This document shows positions 2,290 through 62,547 of a stretch of DNA of 64,000 bases, piece after piece (the first letter of the stretch is position 1; each line of letters opens with the position of its first letter). The position numbers were made by a program, and so were the translations under genes. The notes below the pieces were generated by a model. The model was not told the origin of the DNA, made no database searches, and worked only from the letters and a program-made list of their open reading frames with translations. This DNA comes from Squalus acanthias (Eukaryota): assembly GCA_030390025.1 (NCBI GenBank), contig CM059432.1:75828001-75892000 (forward strand), written 5' to 3'.

Positions 2290-4200
2290 GGCCTAGAAAT
2301 TCATGCTCGCGACGAAAGTTGCTGGTGTCACCGGCAACTGGAGTTAACGACCGCTGAAATTGGCCGCAACGCGAAGGAGAATAAATTTGTCTGGGAGGCT
2401 GTAAGATTGGTGGCGCAGCGCTAACCTTCCATGCAACGCCCTCCTAGTGGCGTTAGTGGAGACCTCCGAGGTGAATTTGGCGTTTGAGCTTCGCACAGCC
2501 TCTGGGAGCGAGGCTGTGGAGCTCGCAAGGAATTATGGGCAATTCAAAGGACTATGAATTAAAGGGGCAATGTGTTCAGAACTAATACAAATTAAGATGC
2601 AGTGAAAAAATGCAGCTTTCAGTCCTTGCTGCCTTTCCAAACAAAAACATTAAAAAAGTCCCAAATGTAAATATTTAGCTCTTAAGGCTGAATTCCCTTC
2701 CGAACTTCAAAAATGGGAAAACTGCTTCAGCACTAACACAAATGGCTCAGCAAGCCAAGGAAGGGGCACCCAGGGTCTCACACGCAGCACTCCAGCTTTG
2801 TGCAGGGGGGTCAACATTGCAAGACTGGTCCCCTCCCCACAGGGACCAGGAGGCCCTCCAGAAAGAAGGCTGTGGGGCTACATCACCGAGGCCGTCACTG
2901 CCAGCAGTGTTGCCCCCACCACCTGGCTCCAGTGCCCAAAGAAGCTTCCTGACCTCAGACCAGTGGTCAAGGTCAGTGAATGCATCTTCAAAAGCCGACT
3001 CCTACCAACTGCACCACTAGCTTAACACACAGCTCACGACCCCCACCCCCAATCACTCACCAACCAACAATCTGCACCAATCACGAGGCACATCTCACAT
3101 TCCTAGCCTCACCTCACCCCCTTGGAGCAGACGGTGCTGGCCATTCTTGGCAGGGGCATGGCTGAGCCCTTGGCCAGCGGCAGGGCTGAAAGATGCTGGT
3201 ATCCTCACACATTATCCTCCTTCTCGCATGCACCTCTTGCTTTCCCACCCTCCCCACAACTCCACCCTTGTGCCTTCCTCATTTCACACACCCAACAAAT
3301 GCAGCCTGCCCAGCCAGGGGTTGGGGTTGGAAGAGAAGAAGAAACATCATCACTCAATTTGACACTCCCAGCCACCAGCTCCTCAAGGTCGACCAACAAG
3401 GCCATCTGCAGTGTCCCCCACTGAAAGTCAGCAGCCTTCCACCAGCCATGCTGCAGCCACTGGGGTAGCACTGTGTGACGTCAGTAGGATAGTCAAAGGC
3501 AGACACAAGACAGTTACTAAGAGAATATATAAGGGTGATGAGTTGATTTCTTGATGTCATATTGGATGAATAGATGTATAAAGTTAGATTGGAAAGTTTG
3601 CTTTGTGGTGGCTTTTATTTCAGCATTGTGGCCAAGAGGACACTGTGATGGTCAGTAACAGAGGGAAGGTAAGGTGTGGGACAAATGTTGAAAGGGGAAT
3701 TGGGGTTGTGGTCACTGGTACCGCAGGCGGATGATTCCATCCCGGATATCCCAGCCAGAAAGGGGCTGTCTGGATTGCATCCTTCCTTCTGCTTCCTCCT
3801 CTTTGGCATCTTCCTCTTCTGTGTCTTCCTCTTCCCTCTGCAAGCAGATGCTGTAAATCTGATATGACAGCTTAAAATGCTGGAAATACTCAGCTGGTCA
3901 GACAGCATCTCGACTTGAGACGTGAACTCTGTTTCTTTCTCCACCGGATGTTGCCTAACCTGCTGAGTATTTGCAGCATTTTCTGTCTTCTCAGAGGTCT
4001 TCCTTTACCATCCGAGGCCTTTCAAGTGTCCAGAAGCACTCCCTACATACTTAAAAAACTTTTAACATCTATTGCAGCAAGCCACTACTTCAATAAAATC
4101 AAAAAACCCAGTCCAAAAGCTTGAATCCAAACTTACCTGAAAGATGTGTGTGTCCCTTTAAGAGGTGCTGAAATCACCACTGTCAGCCTGCTTGCACACC
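2290..4200 (+). mobile_element. Degenerate, internally deleted PIF/Harbinger element (Myb-like gene remnant on +, transposase scraps on -)
   Basis: TIR-like ggcctagaaattc at 2290; MAQQAKEGAPRVSHAAL...TWLQC.KK Myb/SANT exon remnant at 2742-2970; 3423-3476 nearly matches 32875-32926 of the fuller element. Right boundary uncertain. Confidence 0.6.
3877..3983. mobile_element. Penelope-like terminal fragment in inverted arrangement
   Basis: aaaatgctggaaatactcagctggtcagacagcatc faces its inverted copy gatgttgcctaacctgctgagtatttgcagcatttt; same sequence as the PLE 3' ends at ~23960-24050 and ~57280-57370. Confidence 0.65.
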
Positions 4201-4509
4201 AGGGTAACCACAGTTCGTGAAGGTGGTCCAGGATTTTGACCCAGCGATGATGAAGGAACGACAATATATCTCCAGGTCAGGATGGTGTGTGACTTAGGGT
4301 GGATCTTGGAGGTGATGGACTATTAACGATATGGTGACGCCATGGTTCCCAAGGAAGCAAAAGAAAAAGCAACTGGTGTGTTACCTTGCTTACCCTTGTC
4401 AGGTCATTGAACTTTTTGCAGCACTGCTCTGCAGTTTCTGGGGGTTGAGAGAGGTGGTACTCAGTGCCACTGCACCTCCTTCTAAGTGGCATGCCAGACA
4501 GTATTCTGA

Positions 4510-4705
4510 GCTTACAACAGAAAATGCTGGAAACACTCAGCAGGCCAGGCAGCATCCGTGGAGAGAGAAACAGGGTTATCGTTTCAGGTCGATGACCCTT
4601 TGTCAGAACTGGAAAAAGTTAGAGATGTAACAGGTTTTAAGCAGGTGCAGAGAAATGCCCACCTTGAAGAAGTTCTGCTTCCAGCATCCGCAATATTTTG
4701 CTATT
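4510..4705 (-). mobile_element. Penelope-like 3' end with degenerate hammerhead motif
   Basis: Matches the PLE end at 57280-57450; the minus strand reads agttCTGACAA-a-gggtc-atc-gacct-GAAA-cg-AT, with core positions mutated. Confidence 0.7.
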
Positions 4706-7087: not shown

Positions 7088-9056
7088 CTACTTCTGCTTT
7101 ATCTTCCTCTTACACGTGCTCCTACGTGGTGCTTCCCCTGTGGCTTCAGCAGATGTGGAGGCCCCTTGCTCACTTTCTTGCTGCTTCTGTCTCGACACCT
7201 TTGGCGGCTGTCCTCTGGGGTTGCGAACCTGTGAGGGCTCAGCAACAGTCTGCTGCTCCTGCGGCTGTGCAGGGGCTGAGACGCCCATCTCAGTTGGGCG
7301 AGGACTCTGGTGGGGCTCTGACCGAGGGCTTTGCAGTAGCATGGTCGTGTGAGCGCTTGGAGAGGAGCCCCCACTTCCTTGTTGTCTCTCACCAGCATCC
7401 CTCTCATGGGTCAGTCCCACTTCAGAGCTAGCAAGTGGCTTGACAGCACCTTGCTGCACTTCAGGGGAGCCATGAGGACCCGTTTCTGCACTGGAAGTCC
7501 TACTCCAGAGGACTTCCATGAAGGTCTGGTTTCTATGCTCAATAGCTGACCATCGCTCCTCAAGAGATGTCAGTCTATTCTGAACAATGGCCATGTTTTC
7601 AATACCCTGGCGACTAAGCTCCTCCATGGCCGTAGCCATCCTCTCATCTACGGTTGCCAGCCTTACCACAGAGGTAGCCATCCTTTCCACGGAGGTAGAC
7701 ATCCTTTCCATGGTGATGCATTCATGCGCCAATGCCTCCACAAAGGCTATGCTCATGTTCGCAATGGACTCCTCCATTCGCTCCACACTCGCAGCGACCC
7801 GGGAGACAAAACCTGCCAGAGACTCCTGCACCTATTCCTGGAGTTCCAGCACCACTCTCCTTCTGGATGGACCTGGAGACACAGGGTCGACATGCAGCTG
7901 AGCCGAGCTGGGAGAGTCCTGCGCCCTCCAACAAGGACTCTCCACTGCTGTCCCTGTCTCCACCATCTGCTGATGCTCACTTGTGATCTGTGATACACCA
8001 GGTGACAACACTACTCTATCCCACGAAGGTCCAACCGAGGTGTGAGTGTCGGTGCTGGGTGCGCTGTATTCTGCTGACGCTGCGCCCTCAGAGGTTGCAG
8101 CTTCCTCTGAGGAGTCTTGAGGCTCAGGCTGCTCCTCCTGGACAGTGGGGATGGGGGCTCTCGATGGTCCTGTAGGGGAGTAAAGGAAAGAGTTAGAGAT
8201 GTGAGGTAAAGGTTGCATGCACATTGAATTGTGCAGATGATCATAAGTCAATCTGTTAGAGCATCAGAATCATTATCAGTCACTCATGCAATGTCAATGA
8301 GAGAGATGCAAAACTATTCTGTCACCAGCTTGCTGTGATGCGCCTGTCTGTCAGTCCCCCACTTGCAAATCGTCCTCCACTCCGGCGATCTCCAGGGCCG
8401 CCTCCTCCGAAGTGGTGAGCTGGGCTACTGAGGGTGGCCATCCTCCTGTCCTCGCTCTTTCCCTCTTATTGTGGACTATCTTTCCCTGCAATGAGGGACA
8501 CAAGTGGAGTTTGAGTGAGAATGAAGGAGTGAGTGTAGAGAATCTATAGCATAGATGCTTAGAAGGAGACAAAGGGCCCTCCCTGTGTGTTGTAAGTTGT
8601 TGTCATTGCATCACAGTGATAGGGAGTATGAGGGCTGCATGGTCGAATAGTTAAGTGAATGTAACCATAGAGAGAGAGAGAGAGAGAGAGGGAATGGGTA
8701 AGGGTGCAGGGATGTAAGGGTCAAGTGGGATGTGGAGGAAGAGGTTGGCAAAGCAGAGTGCTGGTGAGGAGAGGCAATGGGGATCAGATTGAGGCTGATG
8801 GGAATGTCATACTCACTTTTCCTGTGCGGAGAAGGTCATGAAACTTCTTCCTGCACTGCAGCCAGGTTCTGCTGCACATAGAAATTGCATTTATCTCTTG
8901 GGCCACTTGCAGCCACACAGCTTTAGTCTGCTGAGGAGGCTTTTTCCTCCCTGAGGAAGGGAAGAGCACCTCCTTATTTGCTCTTGCTCCCTCCACCAGA
9001 GCTTGGAGGGAGGCTTCATCGAATCCTGGAGCACACTTTGGTCTACTGGTGGACAT
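7088..9056 (-). pseudogene. Harbinger Myb/SANT-like DNA-binding protein gene, 3 exons (9056-8817, 8485-8326, 8169-7088), two in-frame stops
   Basis: Exon 1 (80 codons) ...W LQVAQEINAISMCSRTWLQCRKKFHDL ends at GTGAGT; exon 2 follows ttgcag (GKIVHNKRERARTGG); exon 3 follows cctacag. Phases 0 and 1 are consistent. Stops at 8353-8351 and 7834-7832; heptad-like VERMATS repeats in exon 3. Confidence 0.85.
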
Positions 9057-10142: not shown

Positions 10143-11320
10143 CACCCCTGATCTCCCCCCCACCCGGATCTCCTCCCCGCTCCCCCCCACCCGGATCTCC
10201 TCCCCGCTCCCCCCCACCCGGATCTCCTCCCCGCTCCCCCCCACCCCTGATCTCCTCCCCGCTCCCCCCCACCCCTGATCTCCTCCCCGCTCCCCCCCAC
10301 CCCTGATCTCCTCCCCGCTCCCCCCCACCCCTGATCTCCTCCCCGCTCCCCCCCACCCCTGATCTCCTCCCCGCTCCCCCCCACCCCTGATCTCCTCCCC
10401 GCTCCCCCCCACCCCTGATCTCCTCCCCGCTCCCCCCCACCCCTGATCTCCTCCCCGCTCCCCCCCACCCCTGATCTCCTCCCCGCTCCCCCCCACCCCT
10501 GATCTCCTCCCCGCTCCCCCCCACCCCGGATCTCCTCCCCGCTCCCCCCCACCCGGATCTCCTCCCCGCTCCCCACCACCCGGATCTCCTCCCCGCTCCC
10601 CCCCACCCGATCTCCTCCCCGCTCCCCCCCACCCGGATCTCCTCCCCGCTCCCCCCCACCCGGATCTCCTCCCCGCTCCCCCCCCACCCGGATCTCCTCC
10701 CCGCTCCCCCCCACCCGGATCTCCTCCCCGCTCCCCCCCACCCGATCTCCTCCCCGCTCCCCCCCACCCGGATCTCCTCCCCGCTCCCCCCCACCCGATC
10801 TCCTCCCCGCTCCCCCCCACCCGGATCTCCTCCCCGCTCCCCCCCACCCGGATCTCCTCCCCGCTCCCCCCCACCCGGATCTCCTCCCCGCTCCCCCCCC
10901 ACCCGGATCTCCTCCCCGCTCCCCCCCACCCGGATCTCCTCCCCGCTCCCCCCCACCCGGATCTCCTCCCCGCTCCCCCCCACCCGGATCTCCTCCCCGC
11001 TCCCCCCCACCCGGGATCTCCTCCCCGCTGCCCCCCACCGGATCTCCTTCCCGCTCCCCCCCACCGGATCTCATCCCCGCTCCCCCCCCCCCCCGGCGAT
11101 CTCCTCCCCGCTCCCCCCCCCCCCCCGGCGATCTCCTCCCCGCTCCCCCCCCCCCCGGCGATCTCCTCCCCGCCCCCCCCGGCGATCTCCTCCCCGCTCC
11201 CCCCCCCCCTGCGATCTCCTCCCCGCTCCCCCCCCCCCCCCGCGATCTCCTCCCCGCGCCCCCCCCACCGGATCTCCTCCCCGCTCCCCCCCCCCACCCC
11301 CCGGATCTCCCCCCCCCGAT
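10143..11320. repeat. C/G-rich minisatellite, ~26-28 bp unit (gatctcctccccgctcccccccacccg)
   Basis: Roughly 40 tandem units visible directly; lies inside a Harbinger-like MITE remnant starting near 9726 (ggggggtaatttc). Confidence 0.95.
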
Positions 11321-11662
11321 CTCGTCCTCTGCGGCCACTATCTCACACCCAGTGACTACACTCTACCCTACCACGACCACCATCTTGCCCCAACCACGCT
11401 TTACCCCTTAACGACTACGCATTACCCCCCGCGAACATCATCTTGCCCCACCTGACCACGCTGTACCACCCCCCCCCCCCCCACACAATCTCTCTCCCTC
11501 CCCCCCCACCCAACCATTAGACCTACCTGCTCTTCCGGTGCGTCCTTCTGCTGCAGGTTTTCCTTCCCAATAGGCAGCCAGACTGTCAATCAAGCTGGCT
11601 GTAAGGCGTGAAACCTGAAAAAAAAATCCAATTGTAGGATGTTCGGAAAACCCGTACTTCCG

Positions 11663-16279: not shown

Positions 16280-16340
16280 CTCATTGGTTTTGTCTATGCC
16301 TGCTATGTGATCAGCGTTTTCACTGAGGAAGAGGACAGCT
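16280..16340 (+). CDS. NKAIN3: NKAIN family (Na+/K+-ATPase interacting protein), internal coding exon
   Basis: tctcctcacag|...|gtaagt; 61 bp encoding LIGFVYACYVISVFTEEEDS, the conserved NKAIN TM + EEEDS motif. Paralog call rests on adjacency to GGH. Confidence 0.85.
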
Positions 16341-18094
16341 GTAAGTACTGAAACACACCCGTCTCTGGATCACTCCAGGGTGAGACATGACCTTTGCAAT
16401 AATGACTAATTTATCATAGATTCACACTACATCTCCGCAGGGATGCATCAAAGTAATGAGCATTTTCTTTAGACAGTACCTCTTGTTTGGCTTTGCCAAG
16501 CTGATGCCACAACTGGTAATATTATGTAAGATGTGTCCGATTTTATTTATTCAAATTGAAGTAGAGATAAAAAGAAGTCATAGTTACCAGCCATCTTGCT
16601 TTCCCATAGATTCATGTACTGTGAGAAACATTAGTCTCAAAAGCTGAGGAAAACAAAGGTTTATTGTTCATGATCCCCAATTCAATCCCCGTTGTGTGCG
16701 AGTTATCCGATCTTAGCTGGGCAGTGCTAGGAGTGTTGCAATTGACTACAATGAGCTAGGCATGGTTCATATTCTTGATTGCTAGTTATTCCCGCTGGAA
16801 GGTGACCTGTTTGGATAACAAATGAAGACATGATTGTACTTTAGATTCAAAATACAGCCAAACAAACGTGCATACATTTCCATTTGCGGAAAAAAATCAT
16901 GGGATGGAACTTTCAACATTGGTGGGCCCTAAACGGGCGGTAGTGGATTGGCTGCTCTTTATACACCCTCCCGATGATCATTTCCATTAACTTCAATGGA
17001 AAAGTATAACCGGCAGCCAATCCTCTACTGCCTGTTTTACTTCCCCGGACATTTCTGTGCAAACAAACCCCCCCCCCCACCCCCCCATGCTGCTCAATAG
17101 TTTCCCTTGCCATTAGTGGGGGGTCAGAAATGTGCTGGTGACCAGAAAGTCCGTCACTCGAGCAGATGAAAGTCCAGCTCAGTAGCTCCCCAAGGCAGAA
17201 AAATAATTCCTAAAATATGCAGGCAGACTAGAGAAATAGGTAAAGGTTTTCCAGGCAGTAAGCACCTTAAATGAACCACTTCCACGGAACGGGACAGCTC
17301 ACGAGAAGGCTAATGTCTCATCTATTTTCGTGTAAGCTACACCAATAGAAATGCGGGCATAAATGATGAAAATTGTGATGCCTTACACCATGCACGCCAT
17401 TTGTACGTAAGTGCCAGTGAACGGATCAGAATTTGGGAGATGGTCCCTCCTACCCGGACTGAAAATTTAACAGGGAAGAAAAATGAGCGTAACTGGTGGA
17501 AATGGCTCCTACCCAAAATTCTAACCTTGAAAATGTTGTTGCACTGGTATTATGCTTCTATCTCGCCAAATCCATTGCGGATTTCTGGCCCCATAATATC
17601 TATAGTGGTGTGAGTCTGTGTGTGTGTTTTACCATCCTGCTTCCCCTCGGTGTAAGTGTGTGATCTGTGCACTCAAACCCAATCTTGTGCTTCTGTCAAG
17701 GTTGTACCCGAGTGGCAAGAGTGCGTGAGCTGCTGTTTTCCAAAAGGAGCTTTTTGGGGCTGAGGTGGCCCTCATCTCACAACAGTTACGTTCTGCTGCA
17801 GGTTGCATCTTTGGTCTGGGCTGGGTGGGTGGGCTGGCTCGCTCTGTGCCCTTTCTTTAGGCATTGGAAGGAACTGGCAAGACAGCTTACATGTACTTCT
17901 CTCCTGAGACAGCATCATTATCCACGCACACTTCTGTCATGCCACTAGTACCAGGCACTGGCTCTGCACAGCCGCTGATCTATGAACAAAACAGGCCTAA
18001 GGGTACCAATAAGATCAGTGACTCCCTGCCTCATGGTTATCTAAAATGAGAAGTCGCACAACACCAGGTTATAGTCCAACAGATTTATTTAATT

Positions 18095-18132
18095 TTACAA
18101 GCTTTCGGAGCTGTCGCTCCTTCCTCAGGTAA
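18095..18132 (-). ncRNA. Minimal type I hammerhead ribozyme motif (mirror copy in the left palindrome arm)
   Basis: Exact reverse complement of 18671-18708. Confidence 0.7.
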
Positions 18133-18670
18133 GTTAGCAGTGAGAGAATCTCCCAGAATTCACAATTTAAACACAGACAAAATCTATTCAAATATTTCCC
18201 TACATCAAAGACACACTAAGAGCACAGCCAAGACAATGAGATGTGTCCCAGGGGGTCCAACGTGTCAAACCACCTGCTGGCTGCATATCCTGTCAATTTG
18301 TGTTGGTTCTTGTGTTAGTCTTTTTTTAAAAAAACCACCTGGGAAGACCAGCCATGATGTCAAGTCACGTTCTGTATCGTGACATGAACCCGATATCGCG
18401 ATCGCGATATCGGGTTCATGTCACGATACAGAACGTGACTTGACATCATGGCCGGTCTTCCCAGGTGGTTTTTTAAAAAAAAGACTAACACAAGAACCAA
18501 CACAAATTGACAGGATATGCAGCCAGCAGGTGGTTTGACACGTTGGACCCCCTGGGACACATCTCATTGTCTTGGCTGTGCTCTTAGTGTGTCTTTGATG
18601 TAGGGAAATATTTGAATAGATTTTGTCTGTGTTTAAATTGTGAATTCTGGGAGATTCTCTCACTGCTAAC

Positions 18671-18708
18671 TTACCTGAGGAAGGAGCGACAGCTCCGAAA
18701 GCTTGTAA
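18671..18708 (+). ncRNA. Minimal type I hammerhead ribozyme motif
   Basis: uuac-CUGAGGA-a-ggagc-gaca-gcucc-GAAA-gc-UU-guaa: core boxes, 5-bp stem II, palindromic AGCU helix III, 4-bp stem I (uuac/guaa). Confidence 0.75.
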
Positions 18709-21681
18709 AATTAAATAAATCTGTTGGACTATAACCTGGTGTTGTGCGACTTCTCATTTTTGTCCACCCCAGTCCAACGCCGGCATCTCCACATCATGGT
18801 TATCTGTAATTGATCACAAAGCATGTCAAAGCCAGAAGAGTTAGCCCTCTCCAATGTGACACCCCAGGTCTCTATGGTCGCAGTCTGAGCATCTATGAAG
18901 ATCACAGACTGCTGTTAGCACCTTGCTACAGATGTCCCTAGACCTGCCACACATTCCATAAAGGCTTGCGGTGTTGTTAAACCATCCCTGATATGACCAC
19001 CGATGTCAGTACCAAGGCTCGATCCTCTGCCAGAATCATTTTTTTTTAAATGCTAGGTCAGTGAGCTGCAGATTCCCAGGCTCTTCAGCTGAATGGCAAC
19101 ACCTCCTAACTCTGTGGCCGGCAATGGCTTCCTCCTCATTTGCCACTACCAGCTGCTCTCCTCTAACTCTCCTGGAGTGGATGTCTCTCAGCTGGTGCCT
19201 TGCAGAGATAGGGTGAGTGACAGAGTGTGCTGTGAAGTGTTGACAATAGCAGATGCTGAGGACTTGTGTTGTCTTCTGGCAGCACATCTAAAGAAGGAAA
19301 TGAGGAAGAGAAGTTAGTGCGATTAATTGAGCAGCAGAGATCACATGTCACTTTCAGTCGGAGTAATATGAGGGTTTCATGATATTTTCACACAAAGTCA
19401 ATGTTATTTATTTGACCTTTCCCATGTCTCAGCAAACACTAACAAAACACTGTTTATTCTTGCCATTTCAGCCATCTGCTTTATTTTCTTAATTTTCATT
19501 TGTTCAACAAGATGAGTGATGCAAAGAAAACCTCCTTCCTACTCTACATCAATGATGTGCCCTCATCCCAACCTCAGAAGATTGTCCCTTAGTGTAACAG
19601 TGTGATTTTTCCCAATCCCATACCAGAGATCCATTTAAATGAAGTGGAGTATGGTCTTCATTAAGTTTATGGATAAGAGAAATGTCATATGAACATGTTA
19701 AGTGTTCATCTGCTAATATTGCTGGTAGTGATTTCTAGCCTACTGAGATTTATTTTAATGGCTAATACAGGGGAATACCATTACATCTAATGTGTCATGG
19801 TAAATCAAAAATCAATATAGTTCTTGATCCAGATGAAAATCAAAATCAACAGCTATGAAAGTTTAAAATGTACGTATAAACAGAAGATACTCGGAGAACA
19901 ACAATTACAATCATAACTCCTATTTATACCAGGGGGATATAATGAGATTCCTTGGGGTGAATGTTTACTTTTATTGATAGTGAATTTACATCCTGCCCGA
20001 TTTTCTTTTTCATTGACTTCAAGCACAATGTAAAATTATGCTGTAGCTTTACTGAATATTATGTGGAATTCTAGTCTTCAATCAAACAACAGAATCAAGT
20101 GAAACCTCCATGTAATGCTACATTTCCATTGCAACAACTTGGAGTTCAGAATTACCAGTCAATTTTTGTTAATGGGATTGCACACTTTAGGGGATCAATT
20201 TCTTCCCCGTACATTCTACAGCACTTGCTTAATGGCAAGAATTGGACAGCGGAATAGTATTTTTTTTTTAGGTATATTCATTGAAGAGGCCTCCTTAGAT
20301 TATGGTAGATTCTGATCCATAACATGATGTCAAAAATTTTATGTGCAGAATAGTTTTGCAAACGATCGAATTCTTGTTCAAACTGATACTCAAAATAAAT
20401 ATTTTATTACATGGAAACTCGTGCTACAGTTTTATATCAAGTAGCAAATACGGGAAATTCACTTAGTGTGTACATTGAGGTACATTTGCTGGTTCAGTTT
20501 GTAATACAATATGTGGCTCTTTAGGTTTCTCTGATGGATCATTACATTAAACCAACAATGTACATAACCAGAAGGAATTGACAGTTGGTGTAGAAATATC
20601 ACAGAGTCCACAAGGGGAAATTGACAGACAAATTCTCAGAGCTAAATCAGATCCTCCACTGAGACTGCACCTCAGGGTTTCATTTCACTCCTTTCCTGTC
20701 TTGATATATACCACCGTAGTGTTCCTGGATGTTAGTTGAAGGTTAACTGCATCTCAGAATTCTTAAAAGTAAATCAGATTTATTTTATCTTTAAGTACTG
20801 TATTTCAAGCTATGACATAAAAATAAATGTAATCAGATGATTTGTATTCCAATGTGTGAACTTAAAAAAAAAGTCAAACTGCTTTCTCTTAAAAAGCAGG
20901 GCTCACATACAGCCATTGCATCTTTTACTTTGTACATTAGTATCACACTCAAACTAGAATTTACACCCGCTAACATCCAACCCAATACAGTTATTATTAA
21001 ATTAAGCGGTCAATGGATTTGAATAGATATTTTCTTAACCTACTTTTTAAAGTTATTTTCTCCTCCTCGGCCTCTCTCCACTACGTTCCATTTCCCAACA
21101 GGAAAGGCAGAAATAACTTGCTCCAAGGCTTCTACTGACAATCTTGCTGGTCATCTGACTACAAAAAAATTGCCTGTAATTAATTCTTTTGTAGTGCTTT
21201 CCAACTTTCGGGTGTTTTTGTTAAATGTGAGAAGGGGCAATAAATGCATTAGTCACCTTTAGAGAGCAGACTTTGCTCAGGCTCAGAGGCAAGTGGTGGA
21301 AAATGTGTGGAAACCACAGCAAAACGTCCCATGGGTAGCTAACCAGCAAGTTCTGGATGGTTAATGACCTTGTCTCTGTTGTTGAGTAAGTGCCTGCTGC
21401 TTTGTGCTTCTTTGTTTAAAAGGGAGACAATGAATGTAAGTGACATCAATCTAAATAGTAATGTCTTGTCAAACGACTCCAAAGAAACAACTAATTCAAA
21501 GTCTCCAGCTACACTTGTACACAGCAAACTTTACAAGCGATTGGGTTGTAATTGATAGCTCAACAAGTTGAAGGCACACAACTGGTTCTTGGGAATAATG
21601 AATATTAATTATCACATAATTGGTTGTATATTGTAGCTGTAACTCTTTGTTGCTCACTCTTGATGTTATCACCCCTAAATG

Positions 21682-22389: not shown

Positions 22390-22426
22390 GTATTACATCT
22401 CAAAAGCATCACCAACCTAGATTGAG

Positions 22427-24058
22427 CATTCTCCCAGTTTCTCCATCTCCGCTGCATCTGCTCTGATGATGCCACCTTCCATTCCAGTGCTTCCGACATG
22501 TCTTCCTTTTTCCTCAACCGAGGATTCCCCTCTACCGTGGTCGACACGGCCCTCGACCGTGTCCGTTCTATCTCCCACACTTCTGCCCTCACCTCTGCCC
22601 CTCCCTCCCGGAACCACGATAGAGTTCCCCTTGTCCTCACCTTTCACCCCACCAGCCTCCACATTCAACGGATCATCCTCAGCCATTTCCGCCACCTCCA
22701 GCGTGATCCCACCACCAAACGCATCTTCCCCTCACCTCCCCTTTCAGCATTCCGCAGGGACCGCTCCCTCCGCGACACCCTAGTCCACTCATCAATCACC
22801 CCTAACAGCCCTTCCCCTTCGCCCGGCACCTTCCCGTGCAAGCGCAGGAGATGCAACACATGCCCTTATACCTCCCCTCTTCCCACTGTCCAGGGCCCCA
22901 AACACCCCTTCCAGGTGAAACAGCGATTTACTTATACTTCCTGCAATTTAGTATACTGTATTCGCTGCTCACGATGTGGTCTCCTCTACATTGGGGAGAC
23001 CAAACGCAGATTGGGTGACCACTTTGCGGAACACCTCCGTTCAGTCCGTAAGGGGGACCCTGAGCTCCCGGTCGCCTGTCACTTTAATTCACCGCTTCAC
23101 TCCCACTCTGACCTCACCGTCCTCGGCCTATTACACTGTTCCACGGAAGCGCAGCGTAAGAAACATAGAAACATAGAATCTAGGAGCAGGAGTAGGCCAT
23201 TCGGCCCGTCGAGCCTGCTCCGCCATTCAATACGATCATGGCTGATCATCCAAATCCCTGTCCCTGCTTTTAATCCCCACAGTACACATATCCCACCCTA
23301 CCCCCGTAACCCCACGTATTTAATTCCCCCTAACATATCCCATCCTATCCCCATAACCCCACATATTTAATCCCCCCTAACACTAAGGGTCAATTTATCA
23401 TAGCCAAATCAACCTAACCCACACATTTTTGGACTGTGGGAGGAAACCGGAGCACCCGGAGGAAACCCACGCAGACACGGGGAGAATGTGCAAACTCCAC
23501 ACAGACAGTCACCCGAGGTCAGATTCGAACCCGGGTCTCTGGCGCTGTGAGGCACCAGTGCTAACCACTATGCCACCGTGTTGCCCATCGTAAGCTCGAG
23601 GAACAGCACCTCATCTTTCGTTTAGGCACGCTACAGCCCTCTGGACTCAATATCGAGTTCAACAATTTTAGATCATAACCTTAGCCCCATCACATTTATA
23701 TTTTATTTTCTCATTTTTTTTTCCTCCTAGAAGCTGGCAGCTGTCCTTCATTCTGCCAGTGCATTTCACACTTCTTTCAGCCTTAACCTGTCACATTAAC
23801 ACCACCTCTTGCCTTGATATCTCTTAATGTCTCTCAATGTCTCTTAATCTCTCCTTTTGTTCTTTTATCCCCTCCCCCTTTTCCCAGCTTTATCCTTGCT
23901 TTAAATCTATTTGATTTCCTGCTGTCTCCAGTTCTGATGAAAGGTCTTCGACCTGAAACTCTGTTTCTCTCTCCACGGATGCTGCCTCGCCTGCTGAGTT
24001 TTTCCAGCGTTTTCTGTTGTTATTTCGGATTTCCAGCATCTGCAGTATTTTGCTATCA
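22427..24058 (+). mobile_element. 5'-truncated Penelope-like element (GIY-YIG endonuclease region + 3' end), interrupted by a SINE
   Basis: NLVYCIRCSRCGLLYIGETKRRL..FAEH (GIY-YIG) and C..RCNTC; reading resumes after the SINE as LEEQHLIFRLGTLQPSGLNIEF; TSD tagattgag (22418-22426, 24059-24067). Confidence 0.9.
23161..23588 (-). mobile_element. HE1-like V-SINE (tRNA head, V-domain, CR1 tail)
   Basis: Reverse complement of 60871-61297; TSD cgtaag (23155-23160, 23589-23594). Confidence 0.9.
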
Positions 24059-31084: not shown

Positions 31085-32993
31085 ATGGCCCAACAGGAAA
31101 GAAAGAGAGAGCAAAGAGGTTCTTTGATGCGGCACTGGAGGCCTGGGACCTGGGGGTGCACAGACAACGTCAGTTCCTCTACCCGCAGGGGGACAGGAGG
31201 CCTTCCAGGCAGCACGCCGGAAGGAGGAAATAGCACAAGCTGTCACTGCGACGAGTGTTGTCCCCAGGACCTGGATCCAGTGCCGCAAGAAATTTAATGA
31301 CCTCAGACAAGGCATCTTCAAATGCCATATCCCACCAACTGCACCACTAGCTTTGCACACTGCTCAATGCACCACACCCCCATCACTCACCTACCAACAA
31401 TCTCTAGTAATTACGATTCATACCTCAATCATAGCTTCACCTCACACACTTGCCATTGCTGCAAGACTCACACCCACATCTCACATCTTGCACACACTGC
31501 CAGCTATTCAACCATGGCAGGAACATCACCCAAACACATTGCACCACAATCACTGAGACACTTCCCTTTCTCTTACAGGCAAAGGTGGCACACAACCGCC
31601 ATGAGCAGCAGCAGACGGGCAGAGGGGAAGCTCGACTTCACAGAGCTGGAGAACAAAGTGCTGGAGATAATTGGTGGGGCCGTCACTGAGACCGTGGCGA
31701 GCGACGAGTTTGAAAGCATTGCTGATGATGACAGTATGCTCATACCTAATCCTTCTTCTCACATCCCACTTGCCCCTCATCCCACAATCTCTTCTCACTT
31801 ACAAGCTGATGATGGTGTAAGTATGAACATCTTGTTCCCCCCCCTCACCACAACCCGACCCTTCAGCCTTTCTCCTTTCAGATACCCAAGACATGCCACC
31901 AGCACAGCCTGTCCCCGATGTAATGGAGGAGGAGAATGAAGGAGAAGAGAAGCACCGTCACTCGATCTGACACTCCCATGCACCAACTCAGAAAATGGCA
32001 CTGTGCGGACTTTAGAGGATAGGATAGAGGCGGGATCTGCACATGGTGAGTCACTGCGCCCAAGTGGGCTACAGCCAGGCAGGGTAGCTCAGGTGCCAGC
32101 TCCCCGGAGTGCGAGTTTGCGCATGAGTTATGCTGCACAGGACTCAGGTGATGACTTCAATGGAGCAGCCTTCAGAAGAAGGGTGATGGCCATGCACACA
32201 GGAATGCTTGATGCAATGGCAGGCCTGCCAGAGAGCCTCTTGTCAGTGTCAAGGAGCATGGAGGAGTCCGGCTCCAACATTGCATGATGTTTTGTGCAGA
32301 GCCCATGATTTCCAGGATGGATATGATGGGCAACTCCATTAGGGAACTTGTGGACCCAAACATGATGCTTGGTGTGATTGGCGATCTCGCGGCATCCATT
32401 GCAGCACAGGCAGAAGCGACCCAACGTCTCAGTGCTGCAGTGGAAGCTCAGATTACTCTCCTGCAGTCTCCGCTTGCTTCCGCACAAACTCAGCCTGCCC
32501 TCATGCAGTCTCAGCTGGCTGCCATGCAAGATCAGACTGCTGCCATCGTGGCTGGGTTTATGCATGTGGATAAGGGCTTGCAGGGTCTCTCAGCAGTCCA
32601 GCAATCTGTGCTCCAACAGATGGCTAGGAATGCTGATGCACCTCCCGGGGGAGTGGCAGTGGCTCCATAGAGCAAGAACCTAATGTCCTCACTCAGGATG
32701 CCAACATTCCTACCACCACCACTGCCACTCTGCCAGTGCCCTTGCAGCTGCCTGCCAGCCAGCCAGCCCAGACTGCTGCCACCCATGCCGAGGAGGTGCA
32801 GTCTACAGCTGGGCCTTCTAGGCCCAGAACTGCTTGAGGTCATCCTGCAAGGCTATCTGCAGTCTCACCCACAGAAAGTCAGCAGCCTTCCACCAGTAAT
32901 GCTGCAGCCACTGGGGTAGCACTGTGTAGGAGCACTAGACTAAGCAAAGGAACACAAAAGATAGACACTAAGGGAATGCACAAGGGTGATTAG
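31085..32993 (+). pseudogene. Harbinger Myb/SANT gene, spliced (acceptors before 31579 and 31882), frameshifted
   Basis: EIAQAVTATSVVPRTWIQCRKKFNDL in exon 1; cttacag|AKVAHNRHEQQQTG in exon 2; ctttcag|atacccaag exon 3 with an acidic then coiled-coil-like region. Confidence 0.75.
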
Positions 32994-33187: not shown

Positions 33188-34245
33188 TCACAGACAGCCC
33201 GTCCAGAACTGGGATCTGCTGTCAGCCTCTTCCTCCTCCTCCTGAGGTGGTTCCGGAACCCATGGTAGCAAGGGCTGGGCCCTCATGATGGCCAAGTTGT
33301 GGAGCATGCAGAAGAGCACAGTGAAATGGGACACCTGTTCCAGTGTGTAGTGGAAGGCTCCTCCCGAGCGATCAAGGCAGCAGAACCATTGCTTCAGAAC
33401 CCCGATGGTCTGCTCAATAAGGTTCCTGGTGGCAGCATGGCTGTCATTATATGAGTGCTGGCTATGAGTGGTGGGGTTGTGGAGGGGAGTCATCAGGCAG
33501 GTCTCGAGCGGATAGCCCTTGTCTTCAAGCAGCCACCCTTGAGTTCGACGTGGTGGCTGGAAGATTGCTGGCACATCGGACTGATGCAGGATGAAGGCAT
33601 CATGATGTGCTGGGCGTGGTCGCACACCAACTACACATTAAGTGAGTGGTAGCCTTTGCGGTCGTGGTACATCTCAGGATTCATATGCCATGCCCACAAA
33701 CCCATGTTTCTCCAGTCGATTGTTGCCTGCACCATTAGGAAGCCCAATATTTTGGCAAAGCCACATGCGCGCTCCTCCTGCTTCTCTCTGTTCAGAGAGA
33801 AGACAATGAAATCAATCCTCCTGGAGTACAGAGCTTTTGTGACCTCCTGGATGCAGCAATAGACGGTGAACTGGGAGATGTTAGCTGTACCTCCTGCTCC
33901 AGCGTGGAAGGATCCGTTGGCGAAAAAATTGAGGGCCACGGTGACCTTGAGGGCCATTGGCAGCGCGGTCATCGCCCTGTTCTGAGGCTGCAGGTCTGGT
34001 TTCAGGAGGTGGCAGAGTTCTGCGACCACCTCCTTGGTGAAGCGGAGCCTCCTAATGCACTGCTCCTGGCTTAGGTGCGGGTAGGAGCAGTGCTCCCTGA
34101 AGACCTTAGGTGGGATTATGCCTCCTGCTGAGAGGCCTCCTGCCCCTCCTCCTCCCTCTGCAAGCATCTTGTCCTCTTCTTCACTGCCTCTGCTTCATCT
34201 TCCTGTCATACCCGAGTGCGAGGGGACTGCAAGTAGAGCCCCCAT
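33188..34245 (-). pseudogene. Harbinger (HARBI1-like, DDE_Tnp_4) transposase, disrupted
   Basis: CIRRLRF...LKVTVALNFFANGSF...ATID...RKGYHSLNV*...HDAFIL...WLLEDKGYP...LMTP...HAATRNLIEQTIGVLK..F..LD...CMLHN. Confidence 0.92.
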
Positions 34246-41402: not shown

Positions 41403-43411
41403 GGCCTAGAAATTCGATCGCGCCCAAAAAGAGGCACGCAGGGGATAAGGCACGGACTGCCACCTCTGTTCACGTGGGTGCAGGGACCACAGGCGTCCAG
41501 CCAGTGCTACCCTCACTGCTAATTAACTGCGTGCCTGTTTGGGGGCATGGGAAATAGAGCGTCTCTGGTGCCACTTTAAAGGCACTCAGATATTGGTTGT
41601 GAGGAAAGTGCTCATAAGGATGGTGGCACTGTTGGTGTATTGGGGATTGGAGGGATGGTTCAGGTGAAGAACTCTGGCAGCAAATGGTACAGGTGATCGA
41701 TGGTGCTCTTAAATCTCCTAGAATATAAGAAATAGGAGCAGGAATAGGCCACTTGGCCCCTCGAGCTTGCTCCGCCATTCAATATCATGGCTGATCTTGG
41801 GCTCAAAGCCACTTCCCCGCCCACTCCCCATAACCCTTCACTCCCTTATCTTGCAAAAATCTGTATCTCCACCTTAAACGTATTTAATGACCCAGTCTCC
41901 ACAGCTCTCTAGGGCAGAGAATTCCACAGATTTACAACCCTATTGCTGCCCAGAAGGTGGTAAGGGTTGGTCCTTCCTTTTAATGATGTTATACAGCACG
42001 TAGCAATTGAGCAAAAATCAGGATACATGTTCAGAGGTGTGCTGCAGAGCTTCTCGCGAACAGTCCAGGTAGTTGGAGCATTGCTTGAGAACGCCGATGG
42101 TCTACTCAATTTCTGGTGGCAGCATAGCTTACAATGTAGTCCAACTCTGCGCCTGTGCCCGGATTCCTGACAGGAATCATGAGTCATGTCCGGAGGGGAT
42201 ATCCCTTGTAGCCAAGTAGCCAATCTGTGACCTGATGCCCTGGTAGGAATAAAGGCAACACCGAGGACTTGCACAGGATGAATGAATTATGACTGTTGCC
42301 AAGAAACAGGGAAGAGACCTGTATGATGTGCTGCCTGTGGTCACAAACAAGCTGCACATTGAGGGAGTGGTTATCCCTTTCTATTGAAAAAGATGCCAGG
42401 GTGGCAAAGCAATATGGGTGCAGTCTATGGCCTCTTGGACCCTGGGGGAGCCTGCAATGTGTGCTTCCTGTCCTGCCTTGCTCTGTCCATGGGGAATGTA
42501 ATGCATGGGTTACTCCTGGCATAGAATCCAGTCACCCTGGTACAGCAGTGGACTGCACACTGTGATATGTCACCTGCTGCAGCCTGAAACGACCCCATGA
42601 CGTAAAAATTAAGGACCACATTGACCTTGATAGCCTCAGGCATTGCTGTCCATGCCCTGGTTTGAGGCCCGAGCTGTGGCTGTAGCAGATGACATAGCTC
42701 AGTGACAGGCTCCTTGCTGAAGCGAAGGCATGTGAGGCATTGCTCCTCAGTGAAGTTGAGGTATGAGAAGTGCTCCCTGAAGACCAATTGTGTGGATGGG
42801 CTCCTGCGCAGGGCCCTCCTCCTCCATCTTCTCGCAGCTTCTCCTGCTCTCTCCTGTTTTCTTGGCTGCTCCCCTTCCTCCTCCAGCCCCAAAGGAAGAC
42901 CGACCAGATCACCCATGGCTGGAATAAACTGCAGTACAGACAAAAAACAGTCCAGCACCATCAGCACAAAGTTGTTCCTGGAAGTCAGAATCACTTGTAG
43001 AAAGGAGAAAATAGCAAAGAGAAGGCCCAGCAGTTAACAGCAATCCAAGAGGATAAACCAGCAACTAACCTGTATGGAATCAATGAACCCATTAAATAGC
43101 ACTCCTGCCAGATCCTTGATGACTGTTAATGTCATGATTTGTTGGGCGAGTTTATCATGTAACGAGTAAGGCACTTGAGCAGACCAATTTTGCAAAAAGT
43201 TCCTAAAACAAGCTTAGGACCCTTATTTTAATATTGTAATGAGGTTTTTAATACTTCCGGGGCCTGCCCTGGACCCCTATGGAGCAGTCCGGTCCAATAT
43301 GGCGGGCGGCACACTTTCAGCAGGGGAAATGGGCATGCCATTCCATATTGGACCCCTAGGCACTCATTTTAAGCCTGCAAAACAGATGCAGTGCAATTGA
43401 ATTTCTAGGCC
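41403..43411 (-). mobile_element. Harbinger element with decayed transposase (no Myb gene seen), containing a CR1 3' fragment at ~41720-41942
   Basis: TIRs ggcctagaaattc / gaatttctaggcc; VFREHFSYLNFTEEQCLTCLRF...LNFYVMGSFQ...HSLNVQLVCDH...WLLGYKGYP. Confidence 0.85.
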
Positions 43412-56700: not shown

Positions 56701-57277
56701 TGAATGAATTCTTAAAATGTTCAATTACGCTATTTTAACGGAGACATTAATCCATTTACTTTAAAAGGGGGGTAGAGCCTACATTACAATCACAGAGAGA
56801 GGATCTTGATAATGCATTAAGTGTTTTCACAACACAGACAGCTATTTCTACACTTATACTTACTGACCTTCACATCATGCTTGATGAGCCAAATAAAGTG
56901 TTAGCTAGTTTTATGGAGCTTTCGCAAAGACGTCAGGAGAGAGGAAGTATTAGACAGAGAAGTTGTAGCTTTCTGTTGAGTAGTAAAACTTGCCTTAAGA
57001 CACTTCCCATTACTGACAATGCCATTCATTTACATGCATATCCAGGCCATACTGGATGCAGGTAATTTAGGTGGCAAAGTACAGGTGTAATTTATATCAA
57101 CATGTTGCTGAAAGCTAGATTTTACATGTCATTCAAGCAAGGGCTTAGAATTTGATGATTGGGCAAGAATCAATTGCCATAGTTGCTAATGACATTGAAC
57201 ACTGGAAAAGTGGATACTGTACTTCTACATCTGCACTACAGAATAACTAATCCAACAAGTCTTCTATAGGACAAAAG

Positions 57278-58476
57278 CAAAATGCTGCAGATGCTGGAAA
57301 TCTGAAATATAAACAGAAAATGCTGGAAATACTCAGCAGGTCTGGCAGCATCTGTGGAGAGAGAAACAGAGTTAACGTTTCAGGTCAATGACCTTTCATC
57401 AGAACTGGAAAAAGTTAGAGATGTAACAGATTTTAAGCAAGTGCAGGGGCAGGGAAAGGGGGGAGGGGAGGAAAGAACAAAACAGTAGGTCTGTGATGGG
57501 GTGGAAGGCAGGAGAGATTAAATGACAAAAGGCATGATTATACAAAGCAAAAGGAGATGGTAATGGGACAAGTAAAGAAACAAAAGATGGGTCTAGAAGA
57601 GGTGTAAATGGGAATGGCAGAATCATCAACAGCTGCCATCTGAAAAAATAGGGGCAGAGGTTATGATCTGAAATTGTTGAACTCGATGTTGAGTCCAGAA
57701 GGCTGTGAAGTGCTTAATCGAAAGATAAGGTGCTGTTCCTCGAGCTTACGTTGAGCTTTGTTGGAACAGTGTAAGAGACCGAGGACAGAGAGGGAGTGGA
57801 GTGGAGAATTAAAGTGACAAGCGACGGGAAGCTCGGGGTCAAGCTTACGGACTGAACGGAGGTGTTCCGCAAAGCGGTCACCCAATCGGCATTTGATCTC
57901 CCCAATGTAGAGGAGACCACATCGTGAGCAGCGAATACAGAATACTAAATTGCAAGAAGTAAAGTAAATCGCTGTTTCACCTGGAAGGAGTATTTGGGGC
58001 CCTGGACAGTGGGAAGGGAGGAGGTAAAAGGGCAGGTGTTGCATCTCCTGCACTTGCACCAGGAATGTGCTGTGAGAAGGGGAGGGGGTGTTGGGGTGAT
58101 TGAGGAGTGGACCAGGGTGTCGCGGAGGGAGCGGTCTCTTCGGAATGCTGAAAGGGGAGGTGAGGGGAAGATGTGTTTGGTGGTGGGATCACGTTGGAGG
58201 TGGCGGAAATGGTGAAGGATGATCCGTTGAATGTGGAGGCGGAGGATGATCCATTGAATGTGGAGGCTGGTGGGGTGAAAGATGAGAACAAGGGAAACCC
58301 TATCGTGGTCCTGGGAGGGAGGGGAAGGGGTGAGAGCAGAAGTGCGGAAAATGGAACGGACATGGTCGAGGGCCCTATCAACCATGGTAGAGGGGAATCC
58401 TCGGTTGAGGAAAAAGGAAGACATATCGGAAGCACTGGTATGGAAGATGGCATAGTCAGAACAGATGCGATGGAGA
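57278..58476 (-). mobile_element. 5'-truncated Penelope-like element (same family as 22427-24058)
   Basis: NLVFCIRCSRCGLLYIGE...LEEQHLIFRL...GLNIEFNNFRS*; imperfect TSD ataggacaaaag (57266-57277) / ataggtcaaaag (58477-58488). Confidence 0.9.
57370..57406 (-). ncRNA. Minimal type I hammerhead ribozyme motif, intact
   Basis: aguu-CUGAUGA-a-agguc-auu-gaccu-GAAA-cg-UU-aacu: stem I aguu/aacu, 5-bp stem II, palindromic ACGU helix III, GUU cleavage triplet. Confidence 0.78.
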
Positions 58477-60870: not shown

Positions 60871-61297
60871 GGCAACACGGTGGCATAGTGGTTAGCACTG
60901 GTGCCTCACAGCGCCAGAGACCCGGGTTCGAATCTGACCTCGGGTGACTGTCTGTGTGGAGTTTGCACATTCTCCCCGTGTCTGCGTGGGTTTCCTCCGG
61001 GTGCTCCGGTTTCCTCCCACAGTCCAAAAATGTGTGGGTTAGGTTGATTTGGCTATGATAAATTGACCCTTAGTGTTAGGGGGGATTAAATATGTGGGGT
61101 TATGGGGATAGGATGGGATATGTTAGGGGGAATTAAATACGTGGGGTTACGGGGGTAGGGTGGGATATGTGTACTGTGGGGATTAAAGCAGGGACAGGGT
61201 ACTGGATTTGAATGATCAGCCATGATCGTATTGAATGGCGGAGCAGGCTCGACGGGCCGAATGGCCTACTCCTGCTCCTAGATTCTATGTTTCTATG
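60871..61297 (+). mobile_element. Full-length HE1-like V-SINE
   Basis: A-box tggcatagtgg, B-box ggttcgaatc, V-domain gtggagtttgcacattctccccgtgtctgcgtgggtttcctccggg, CR1-derived 3' tail ending ttctatgtttctatg. Confidence 0.92.
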
Positions 61298-62547
61298 TTA
61301 ATTATGCAGTAACCGTTTTAGACTGCTCAAGGCAAGTTTTCCGATATATACATTACTTAAAGATCTAATTTACTTGATGCCAAGAAGAAAGAGTTTATTG
61401 TATAGAACAGTGGCTTGATACTTGCGGCAGCTACAACAAGGCTTTGCCAGTGCCTCTTTTGCCTAAGCCTTTGACACAAAGTAGAAAGCTGCACTCAACA
61501 ACATGCATTTAAAAGACATATTAGTAGCAAGAAAAATAAATATATCAGAATGATTCATTTAGGGTATATATTTGAATCTGTAGAATGTTCATAATCACAG
61601 CACCGTGTTGGATGTCTTAGCAGTTGGACTGGTTCCATGTCATCAATTCCTCCTCCCAAAAGTATGAAGGAGAAAGGAAAATGAGAGCGCGGTTCCTTTC
61701 TGCCCAGATGAGAAGAAATGTTTGTTGAACACGGGTTTAACTCTTGGTCAAGTTGCAAAGCATTCAAACCATTCAAATTCAAATTAGGAAAATGGGAAGG
61801 TAAAACTCAGTTAGTGCACTGGGGTTACATTAAGGATATGAATCCATCCACATACATCAACACCAGTGGTCCTTTTAGAAACCCGCCATGTGACGGCTGG
61901 GTAGAGATGATCCACCAGCTCAAATCCCTGCAGCAGGATCCTACAGATCCTACTGTGTGTGGAATCTCCATCACATACCTTAGGTTGTACCACATCTAAT
62001 AGGGCACTCAAACAACCTGACAGACAGCCATGTCTCCTCAAACTGGATTGACTCTGGTTACCTCAGTACAGCAACAGCTTTACTACCATTACCTTTCAAC
62101 CAGCAGATTTAGAACACCAAGGTCAGTGCTCTCAAGGTCATTTCAAATGTGTGGGCTAAGCAACAGGATAGAGCTCTATGGGTTAAGAGTCAGATACATA
62201 AAGTTTACTGGATTGTAATCTTTCATAGGCTTCACCTAAAATGGGAGGACTGGAAGCATCAGGGATTAAACAAAGGAGCAGATTTCAGCAGCCCAGAAAT
62301 TTTATGAACACACATGGCAGCAAGGAGATTAACTTATGGAAGCCTTTAAGGCTCAAAACTCTCAAGAGACTAAAGAAAACATGAATGCCAGACTTGCTTC
62401 CAGCTTTCACTGACTGCAGCTAAGAATCCCTTGAAATAGCAATGCAAATGACTGCCCCTTAACCTGTACCACCCATGGTTTGTGAGCAGGTTGAGGAAGT
62501 AGCAATGACAGCACTGATTGACATGAGGGATCCTGACAACATCAGTT

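Follow-up and report, generated by a model that had tools for sequence, protein, structure and literature searches.

A young palindromic insertion in Squalus acanthias, very probably left by a Penelope-like element

A stretch of 64,000 nucleotides from Squalus acanthias (GenBank assembly GCA_030390025.1, contig CM059432.1, positions 75,828,001 to 75,892,000 of the forward strand), referred to below as the window, contains at positions 18031–18805 a long palindrome bracketed by a short direct repeat. With a probability of about 0.9, the locus can be read as head-to-head copies of the last ~360–390 bases of a high-copy repeat, introduced by one recent integration of a Penelope-like element (PLE).

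Architecture of the insertion and its parent family

The two inverted arms, 18043–18401 and 18402–18760, are 359 nt each, 99% complementary and separated by a spacer of 0 nt, giving 718 bases in total. They are followed by an unpaired, one-sided tail of 33 nt (18761–18793), and the whole unit is bracketed by an exact 12-bp direct repeat (18031–18042 and 18794–18805), regarded as a target-site duplication (TSD). Arms, mismatches, tail and TSD had all been described in the original prediction and were reproduced from the sequence, as was the end of an open reading frame (ORF) in the right arm: the frame from 18403 reads RDIGFMSRYRT*, i.e., the last 11 codons and the stop (18403–18438). Each arm, on its own strand, is an antisense copy that starts at the target end and runs inward. 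Ten inverted pairs with a spacing of up to 3 kb are present in the window, the next longest after the 359-nt pair measuring 44 nt; no further copy of the arm was found within the 64 kb, and no long direct repeat was found at the palindrome locus.

Contigs from public sequencing runs were used for comparison. Of the 21 runs listed, five had half or more of the words, and the contigs of four were aligned to 18382–19700: X1 and X5, two samples of organism A; X6, from organism B, a related species; and X18, the fourth, which may be RNA. All the data from these runs are contigs. The loose-end counts given below refer to the best-supported rows listed, beyond which there are 682 further loose-end rows and 29,956 further pieces. 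The features of the locus are as follows.

18031–18042, no strand: left copy of the 12-bp TSD, an exact direct repeat; site apparently empty in organism B
18043–18401, minus strand: the 359-nt inverted copy of the 3' end of the element, truncated at 5' and lacking the tail; the counterpart of its outer limit in the other arm is 18760, within the family's tail-less terminus cluster (18754–18763)
18095–18132, minus strand: minimal type-I hammerhead motif of the left arm, core start 18128; a descriptor match and, like its counterpart below, a sequence motif only
18401–18402, no strand: junction, where the dinucleotide AT fits both arms (2-nt overlap); an X1 loose end before 18401 has the native sequence continuing through 18401
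Abutting the junction: two palindromes native to the element, ATCGCGAT with its axis after 18404 and CGATATCG with its axis after 18408
18402–18760, plus strand: direct 5'-truncated copy with ORF end, 3' untranslated region (UTR) and hammerhead motif; upstream ORF context from loose ends in X1, X5 and X18
18671–18708, plus strand: minimal type-I hammerhead motif of the right arm, predicted cut after 18704; descriptor match, features as defined in PMC4209133
18761–18793, plus strand: one-sided 33-nt tail, perhaps longer by as much as ~5 nt that overlap the right direct repeat; tailed family ends cluster at 18793–18799
18794–18805, no strand: right copy of the 12-bp TSD; the organism B contig alignment begins exactly at 18794

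The arms differ at exactly two positions. At the first, 18453 C stands against 18350 A of the left arm; this C>T change falls within CCGG/CpG and is of the type expected from the decay of methylated cytosine after insertion. At the second, 18475 A stands against 18328 A on the boundary of a T-run and an A-run that is variable in the family, with T in 77% of the X1 depth. Since only 2 of 359 positions differ, the insertion is considered young. A T at 18609, where G accounts for 91–92% of the family depth, is common to both arms and hence consistent with a single template. No protein is encoded by the insert, which was probably dead on arrival. The original prediction of a single, young, non-coding insertion of a PLE 3' end with an inverted tail-less copy is supported.

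The arm belongs to a very large repeat family, as indicated by a summed depth of 2e5–5e6 on arm and tail against 7–170 on the flank in X1 and X5, a figure that is not a copy number; 13,613 contigs were aligned from X1 and 11,405 from X5. Loose ends occur before 18401 in six contigs of X1 and before 18406 in 15 contigs of X1, 13 of X5 and eight of X18. In X1, X5 and X18 they are in frame with the window and read ...G-L-N-R-D-I-G-F-M-S-R-Y-R-T-stop, so the ordinary members of the family run on into the ORF. Of 150 proteins obtained by a search with the other PLE fragment of the window, 73 have the motif G[LMI]N, typical of Penelope-type proteins, among their final 30 residues, as opposed to 8 of 1,468 interior windows; five of these proteins were scanned, with GIY-YIG detected in all five and reverse transcriptase (RT) in three. 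The position of this motif supports the reading of the arm into the end of a putative Penelope-type ORF.

The ends of the family fall into two clusters, both with diverse flanks. The tail-less cluster lies at 18754–18763 (31 contigs at 18762 in X1 and 23 at 18754 in X6), and the tailed one at 18793–18799 (61 contigs at 18798 in X5; 39 and 15 contigs in X6). The palindrome locus uses one terminus of each kind. Family ends often reach 18796–18799, so that the right direct repeat may include element sequence in its first ~5 nt. The repeat family may already have a name; exact 23–24-nt patterns from arm and tail gave no matches in metagenome contigs and none in viral contigs. It is also worth mentioning that X1 and X5 each contain a single-copy contig joining 18759 back to 18728 with ATATAT between them; this is probably a different locus, at which two tail-less ends have been joined.

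In the flank, organism B differs from the window by ~3% (6 of 194 letters and 20 of 713). Its 3,862-nt contig aligns from exactly 18794, preceded by 921 unaligned letters, and there is no depth on 18382–18645. From the start of this contig and the zero depth on that stretch we infer that organism B has an empty site with a single copy of the 12-mer. In X1, a contig in which 20 nt of the tail are joined to the right flank shows two single-nucleotide polymorphisms relative to the window and ~41 extra bases at 18987, and probably represents another haplotype. An X5 contig starting at 18811 with 18 unaligned letters is not readable as either filled or empty. The extra bases at 18985–18988 are ~41 in the X1 and X5 contigs and 64 in organism B, which points to a small deletion in the window haplotype, 180 bp to the right of the insertion.

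The palindrome centre and the origin of the inverted copy

The depth at 18395 in X1 is 125.2, of which 111.2 comes from one contig lacking 18395–18400. That contig is a perfect palindrome on the native ATCG/CGAT axis after 18404 (ATCGCGAT), with a junction 6 nt shorter. The exact centre of the window is thereby left with a depth of ~14 (125.2 minus 111.2), compared with 7–16 for X1 single-copy contigs, and the neighbouring ATCG/CGAT centre stands at ~8–15 times the single-copy depth. Adding a 6-nt tandem duplication to the commoner junction gives the window centre, and the arms overlap by the dinucleotide AT, since the native sequence continues through 18401. X5 (55% read) and X18 have no depth at 18395 and are uninformative on the centre. 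The depth-111 centre may reflect repeated joining at a self-complementary 8-mer, descent from a single master, or chimeras formed in the library. It is doubtful that ATCGCGAT is a joining hotspot occupied at roughly ten loci on one axis, be it as copies of a hairpin master or as the footprint of end-to-end annealing of cDNAs. If PLE inverted copies did arise by such annealing, this would settle whether twin priming or self-priming operates in vivo.

According to the preferred mechanism, the GIY-YIG endonuclease of the element would nick both target strands 12 nt apart, and reverse transcription would be primed at each nick from two start sites 33 nt apart, one giving a copy with the tail and the other a copy without it. 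Both cDNAs would stop at the same point, beside the short palindromes in the last ORF codons, and would be joined through the 2-nt AT overlap. The joining of two target-primed cDNAs from one template end to end is somewhat favoured, while a template switch onto the first cDNA, with the tail trimmed by the endonuclease, is a tentative alternative of lower probability. In the literature, the tail is ascribed to endonuclease resolution by Craig et al. (PMC8557442), and self-priming was proposed by Arkhipova et al. (PMC3846280). Plain snap-back of one cDNA fits poorly: it should leave a loop unless the axis is natively palindromic, which holds for the axis after 18404 and not for that of the window, about which the native sequence is not palindromic beyond AT.

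The geometry of the locus agrees with what was described for PAc, a Poseidon-type PLE of Anolis carolinensis (Frangieh et al. 2024), in which two RT start sites bracket the tail and both strands are nicked and extended (PMC11167929). Two antisense arms running inward match the nicking and extension of both strands, and the two clusters of family ends are as expected from the two start sites; the PAc scheme predicts one tailed and one tail-less arm running inward, as found here, and PAc likewise has a hammerhead near its end (PMC11167929). PAc is nevertheless a separate family, and it was primed in vitro without homology, whereas here ~5 nt of the target equal the usual tailed end (PMC11167929).

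Several observations weigh against the reading of the locus as a single PLE integration. The ~5 nt of the right direct repeat that coincide with the usual end of the family are among them, although the match may be explained by microhomology between template and target at priming or by target preference. The parent reverse transcriptase–endonuclease ORF was not recovered, with an NRD-x-G ending in 0 of the 150 PLE-like proteins, and a tblastn comparison of these proteins with the arm yielded noise only (best E 0.005, in non-coding frames). The site in organism B is judged empty from sequence at and to the right of 18382, where the aligned stretch begins, and the 20 nt of tail joined to the right flank in X1 are below the 31-letter bridging rule. 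Finally, no read or contig spanning the whole palindrome was present among the contigs of the four runs.

This last point is also what speaks for a fold-back artefact of the assembly, in which case the inverted arm would be absent from the genome, and perfect palindromes are indeed a known artefact of long reads and libraries. However, the 12-bp direct repeat lies at both outer ends with unique sequence resuming beyond each, one of the arm differences is a CpG transition, the left arm terminates at the tail-less terminus of the family, and X1 contigs cross 18395 without a gap at single-copy depth; an artefact is accordingly extremely unlikely. The long inverted arms with a TSD also resemble foldback elements, and either a DNA transposon of the foldback type or of the miniature inverted-repeat transposable element (MITE) type, or an inverted duplication produced after insertion by an error of DNA repair or replication, could be envisaged. 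Foldback elements and MITEs are defined by symmetric terminal inverted repeats extending to both ends and have no retroelement 3' end, whereas here the ends are asymmetric by the 33-nt tail, both of them correspond to the two terminus clusters of a retroelement family, and the arms consist of the ORF end, 3' UTR and hammerhead of that family. A later duplication, in turn, would not be expected to leave a clean TSD outside both arms, and the probability of either origin is negligible.

The original prediction had further envisaged a distinct hairpin-type non-autonomous family, should the palindrome be multi-copy with a shared centre. In such a dedicated family a palindromic master would be transcribed and re-inserted as a unit, leaving many loci with one centre. 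One X1 contig at depth 111, perfectly palindromic on ATCG/CGAT with its junction 6 nt shorter, is in favour of it. Yet the exact centre is at the single-copy level while the arm itself has a summed depth of 3.5e5–4.9e6, the arm is collinear with ordinary members continuing into the ORF, and the self-complementary 8-mer would explain recurrent independent joins, as well as library fold-back chimeras in so huge a family. The proposal was thus not borne out, and such a family is very unlikely.

Hammerhead motifs and the predicted hairpin

The hammerhead motif in each arm has a stem I of 4 bp, CUGAGGA, one additional A, a stem II of 5 bp with a closing G-C pair, and GAAA; the position of helix III is taken by the palindromic AAGCUU. 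Three sites in the window match a custom minimal-hammerhead descriptor, compared with 0.01 on average over 100 Markov simulations: cores at 18675 (plus strand) and 18128 (minus strand), and one at 57402 in another PLE family. The predicted presence of a hammerhead on both strands was in this way corroborated at the level of a minimal motif in each arm. The Rfam search gave no match at the gathering score and no hammerhead family among 28 weak matches; weak matches to miRNA precursors were rejected, as they merely reflect the perfect hairpin. When 18640–18793 was folded freely, its stability was not out of the ordinary (z −0.46), which is what a minimal hammerhead lacking a stable helix III should show.

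These features resemble those of the minimal hammerheads of metazoan PLEs (Cervera and de la Pena 2014), which have an extra base at 9/10.1 before stem II, G10.1-C11.1, a short helix I and a palindromic helix III, and which occur as dual motifs on opposite strands 100–700 bp apart (PMC4209133); the spacing of the opposite-strand pair is 547 bp here. Stem II has 5 bp here, as opposed to 7–8 bp in the Schistosoma hammerheads (PMC4209133), and the Rfam models miss the motif. For the lone minimal motif no detectable cleavage was reported (PMC4209133), while the PAc hammerhead requires the element's protein and is dispensable for insertion in vitro (PMC11167929).

The predicted RNA fold of the insert has an energy of −695 kcal/mol for the plus strand and −705 kcal/mol for the minus strand, and the hammerhead region pairs in silico with the mirror arm with a mean probability of 0.999. 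The idea that the hairpin would sequester its own ribozyme, already put forward for this locus, is therefore consistent with the folding model. Since in either direction the antisense arm would be transcribed before the sense hammerhead, the ribozyme would be buried. A pre-mRNA of the NKAIN-like host gene described below, if transcribed through the insert, is predicted to form a 359-bp duplex burying the hammerhead, as a by-product and not a function.

Host gene context, known PLE insertions and other features of the window

An NKAIN-like host exon is located at 16280–16340 on the plus strand, with an AG acceptor and a GTAAGT donor; its match to the Pfam NKAIN family (E 1.2e-4, 22 bits) does not reach the curated cut-off of 25.9. 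Downstream of the donor of this exon, 1.7 kb into the following intron, lies the insertion. The next NKAIN exon was not found in the 64-kb window, and the term intronic rests on the donor site. Of the NKAIN intron named in the original prediction, the position of the insertion downstream of an NKAIN-like exon with a donor thus stood, while the following exon was not recovered in the window.

The locus is real, young and ordinary, most likely a PLE insertion, the layout of which has already been published (PMC8557442, PMC3846280, PMC4209133, PMC11167929). In endonuclease-bearing PLEs an adjacent inverted, 5'-truncated copy is frequent, with a 30–40-bp tail on one side (PMC8557442), and Pen2/Pen2a_Av of Adineta vaga have inverted pseudo-long terminal repeats (pLTRs), 8–10-bp TSDs and palindromes at the junction (PMC3846280). 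The head-to-head inverted copy, one-sided tail, short TSD and palindromic junction are shared with these insertions, but here both copies are cut to ~360 nt, with no ORF or second pLTR left (PMC8557442, PMC3846280); the TSD is 12 bp instead of 8–10 bp, and the junction overlap 2 nt instead of the 15 bp of Pen2a_Av (PMC3846280). Taken as a list, the features of PLE insertions found at the locus are an adjacent inverted truncated copy, a 33-nt tail on one side, two end positions, a short TSD and a minimal hammerhead.

Non-LTR retrozymes, proposed to be non-autonomous PLE derivatives and reported in one chondrichthyan, are similarly non-coding, hammerhead-bearing and related to PLE ends (bioRxiv 10.64898/2026.07.22.740005). 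They are, however, head-to-tail tandem repeats, whereas the locus is a single head-to-head pair that still has the last ORF codons (bioRxiv 10.64898/2026.07.22.740005), and identity with a retrozyme was rejected because there is no head-to-tail repeat at the locus. A literature search for a shark-specific description of a Penelope element with a hammerhead returned a review and no other paper.

Taken alone, the insertion is of little weight: the repeat is abundant, its copies are very numerous, and their arrangement here is a published one. As an example it is nonetheless clean and young, and its geometry agrees with the priming from two starts and on two strands that was demonstrated in vitro for PAc. 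Junctions of this kind, counted genome-wide, could separate the joining of cDNA ends from template switching or self-priming, a step of the PLE cycle described as unresolved in the cited papers, and perfect intronic hairpins are candidate sources of double-stranded RNA, editing or small RNAs in PLE-rich genomes.

Among the other features of the window, a second PLE family is represented by decayed copies at 22426–24054 (plus strand), 57276–58476 (minus strand) and 60871–61307, with a GIY-YIG remnant and the minimal hammerhead at 57402, and by short inverted ends at 3840–4000 and 4490–4660. A bacterial promoter scan, irrelevant to this host, gave nothing above shuffled sequences. The ORF remnants at 33188–34194, 42425–43033 and 7088–8263 (all on the minus strand) and at 31128–32670 (plus strand) resemble PIF/Harbinger transposase and Myb/SANT-like partner genes. 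A long, G+C-rich array of tandem repeats, in which several frames stay open, occupies about 10450–11410.

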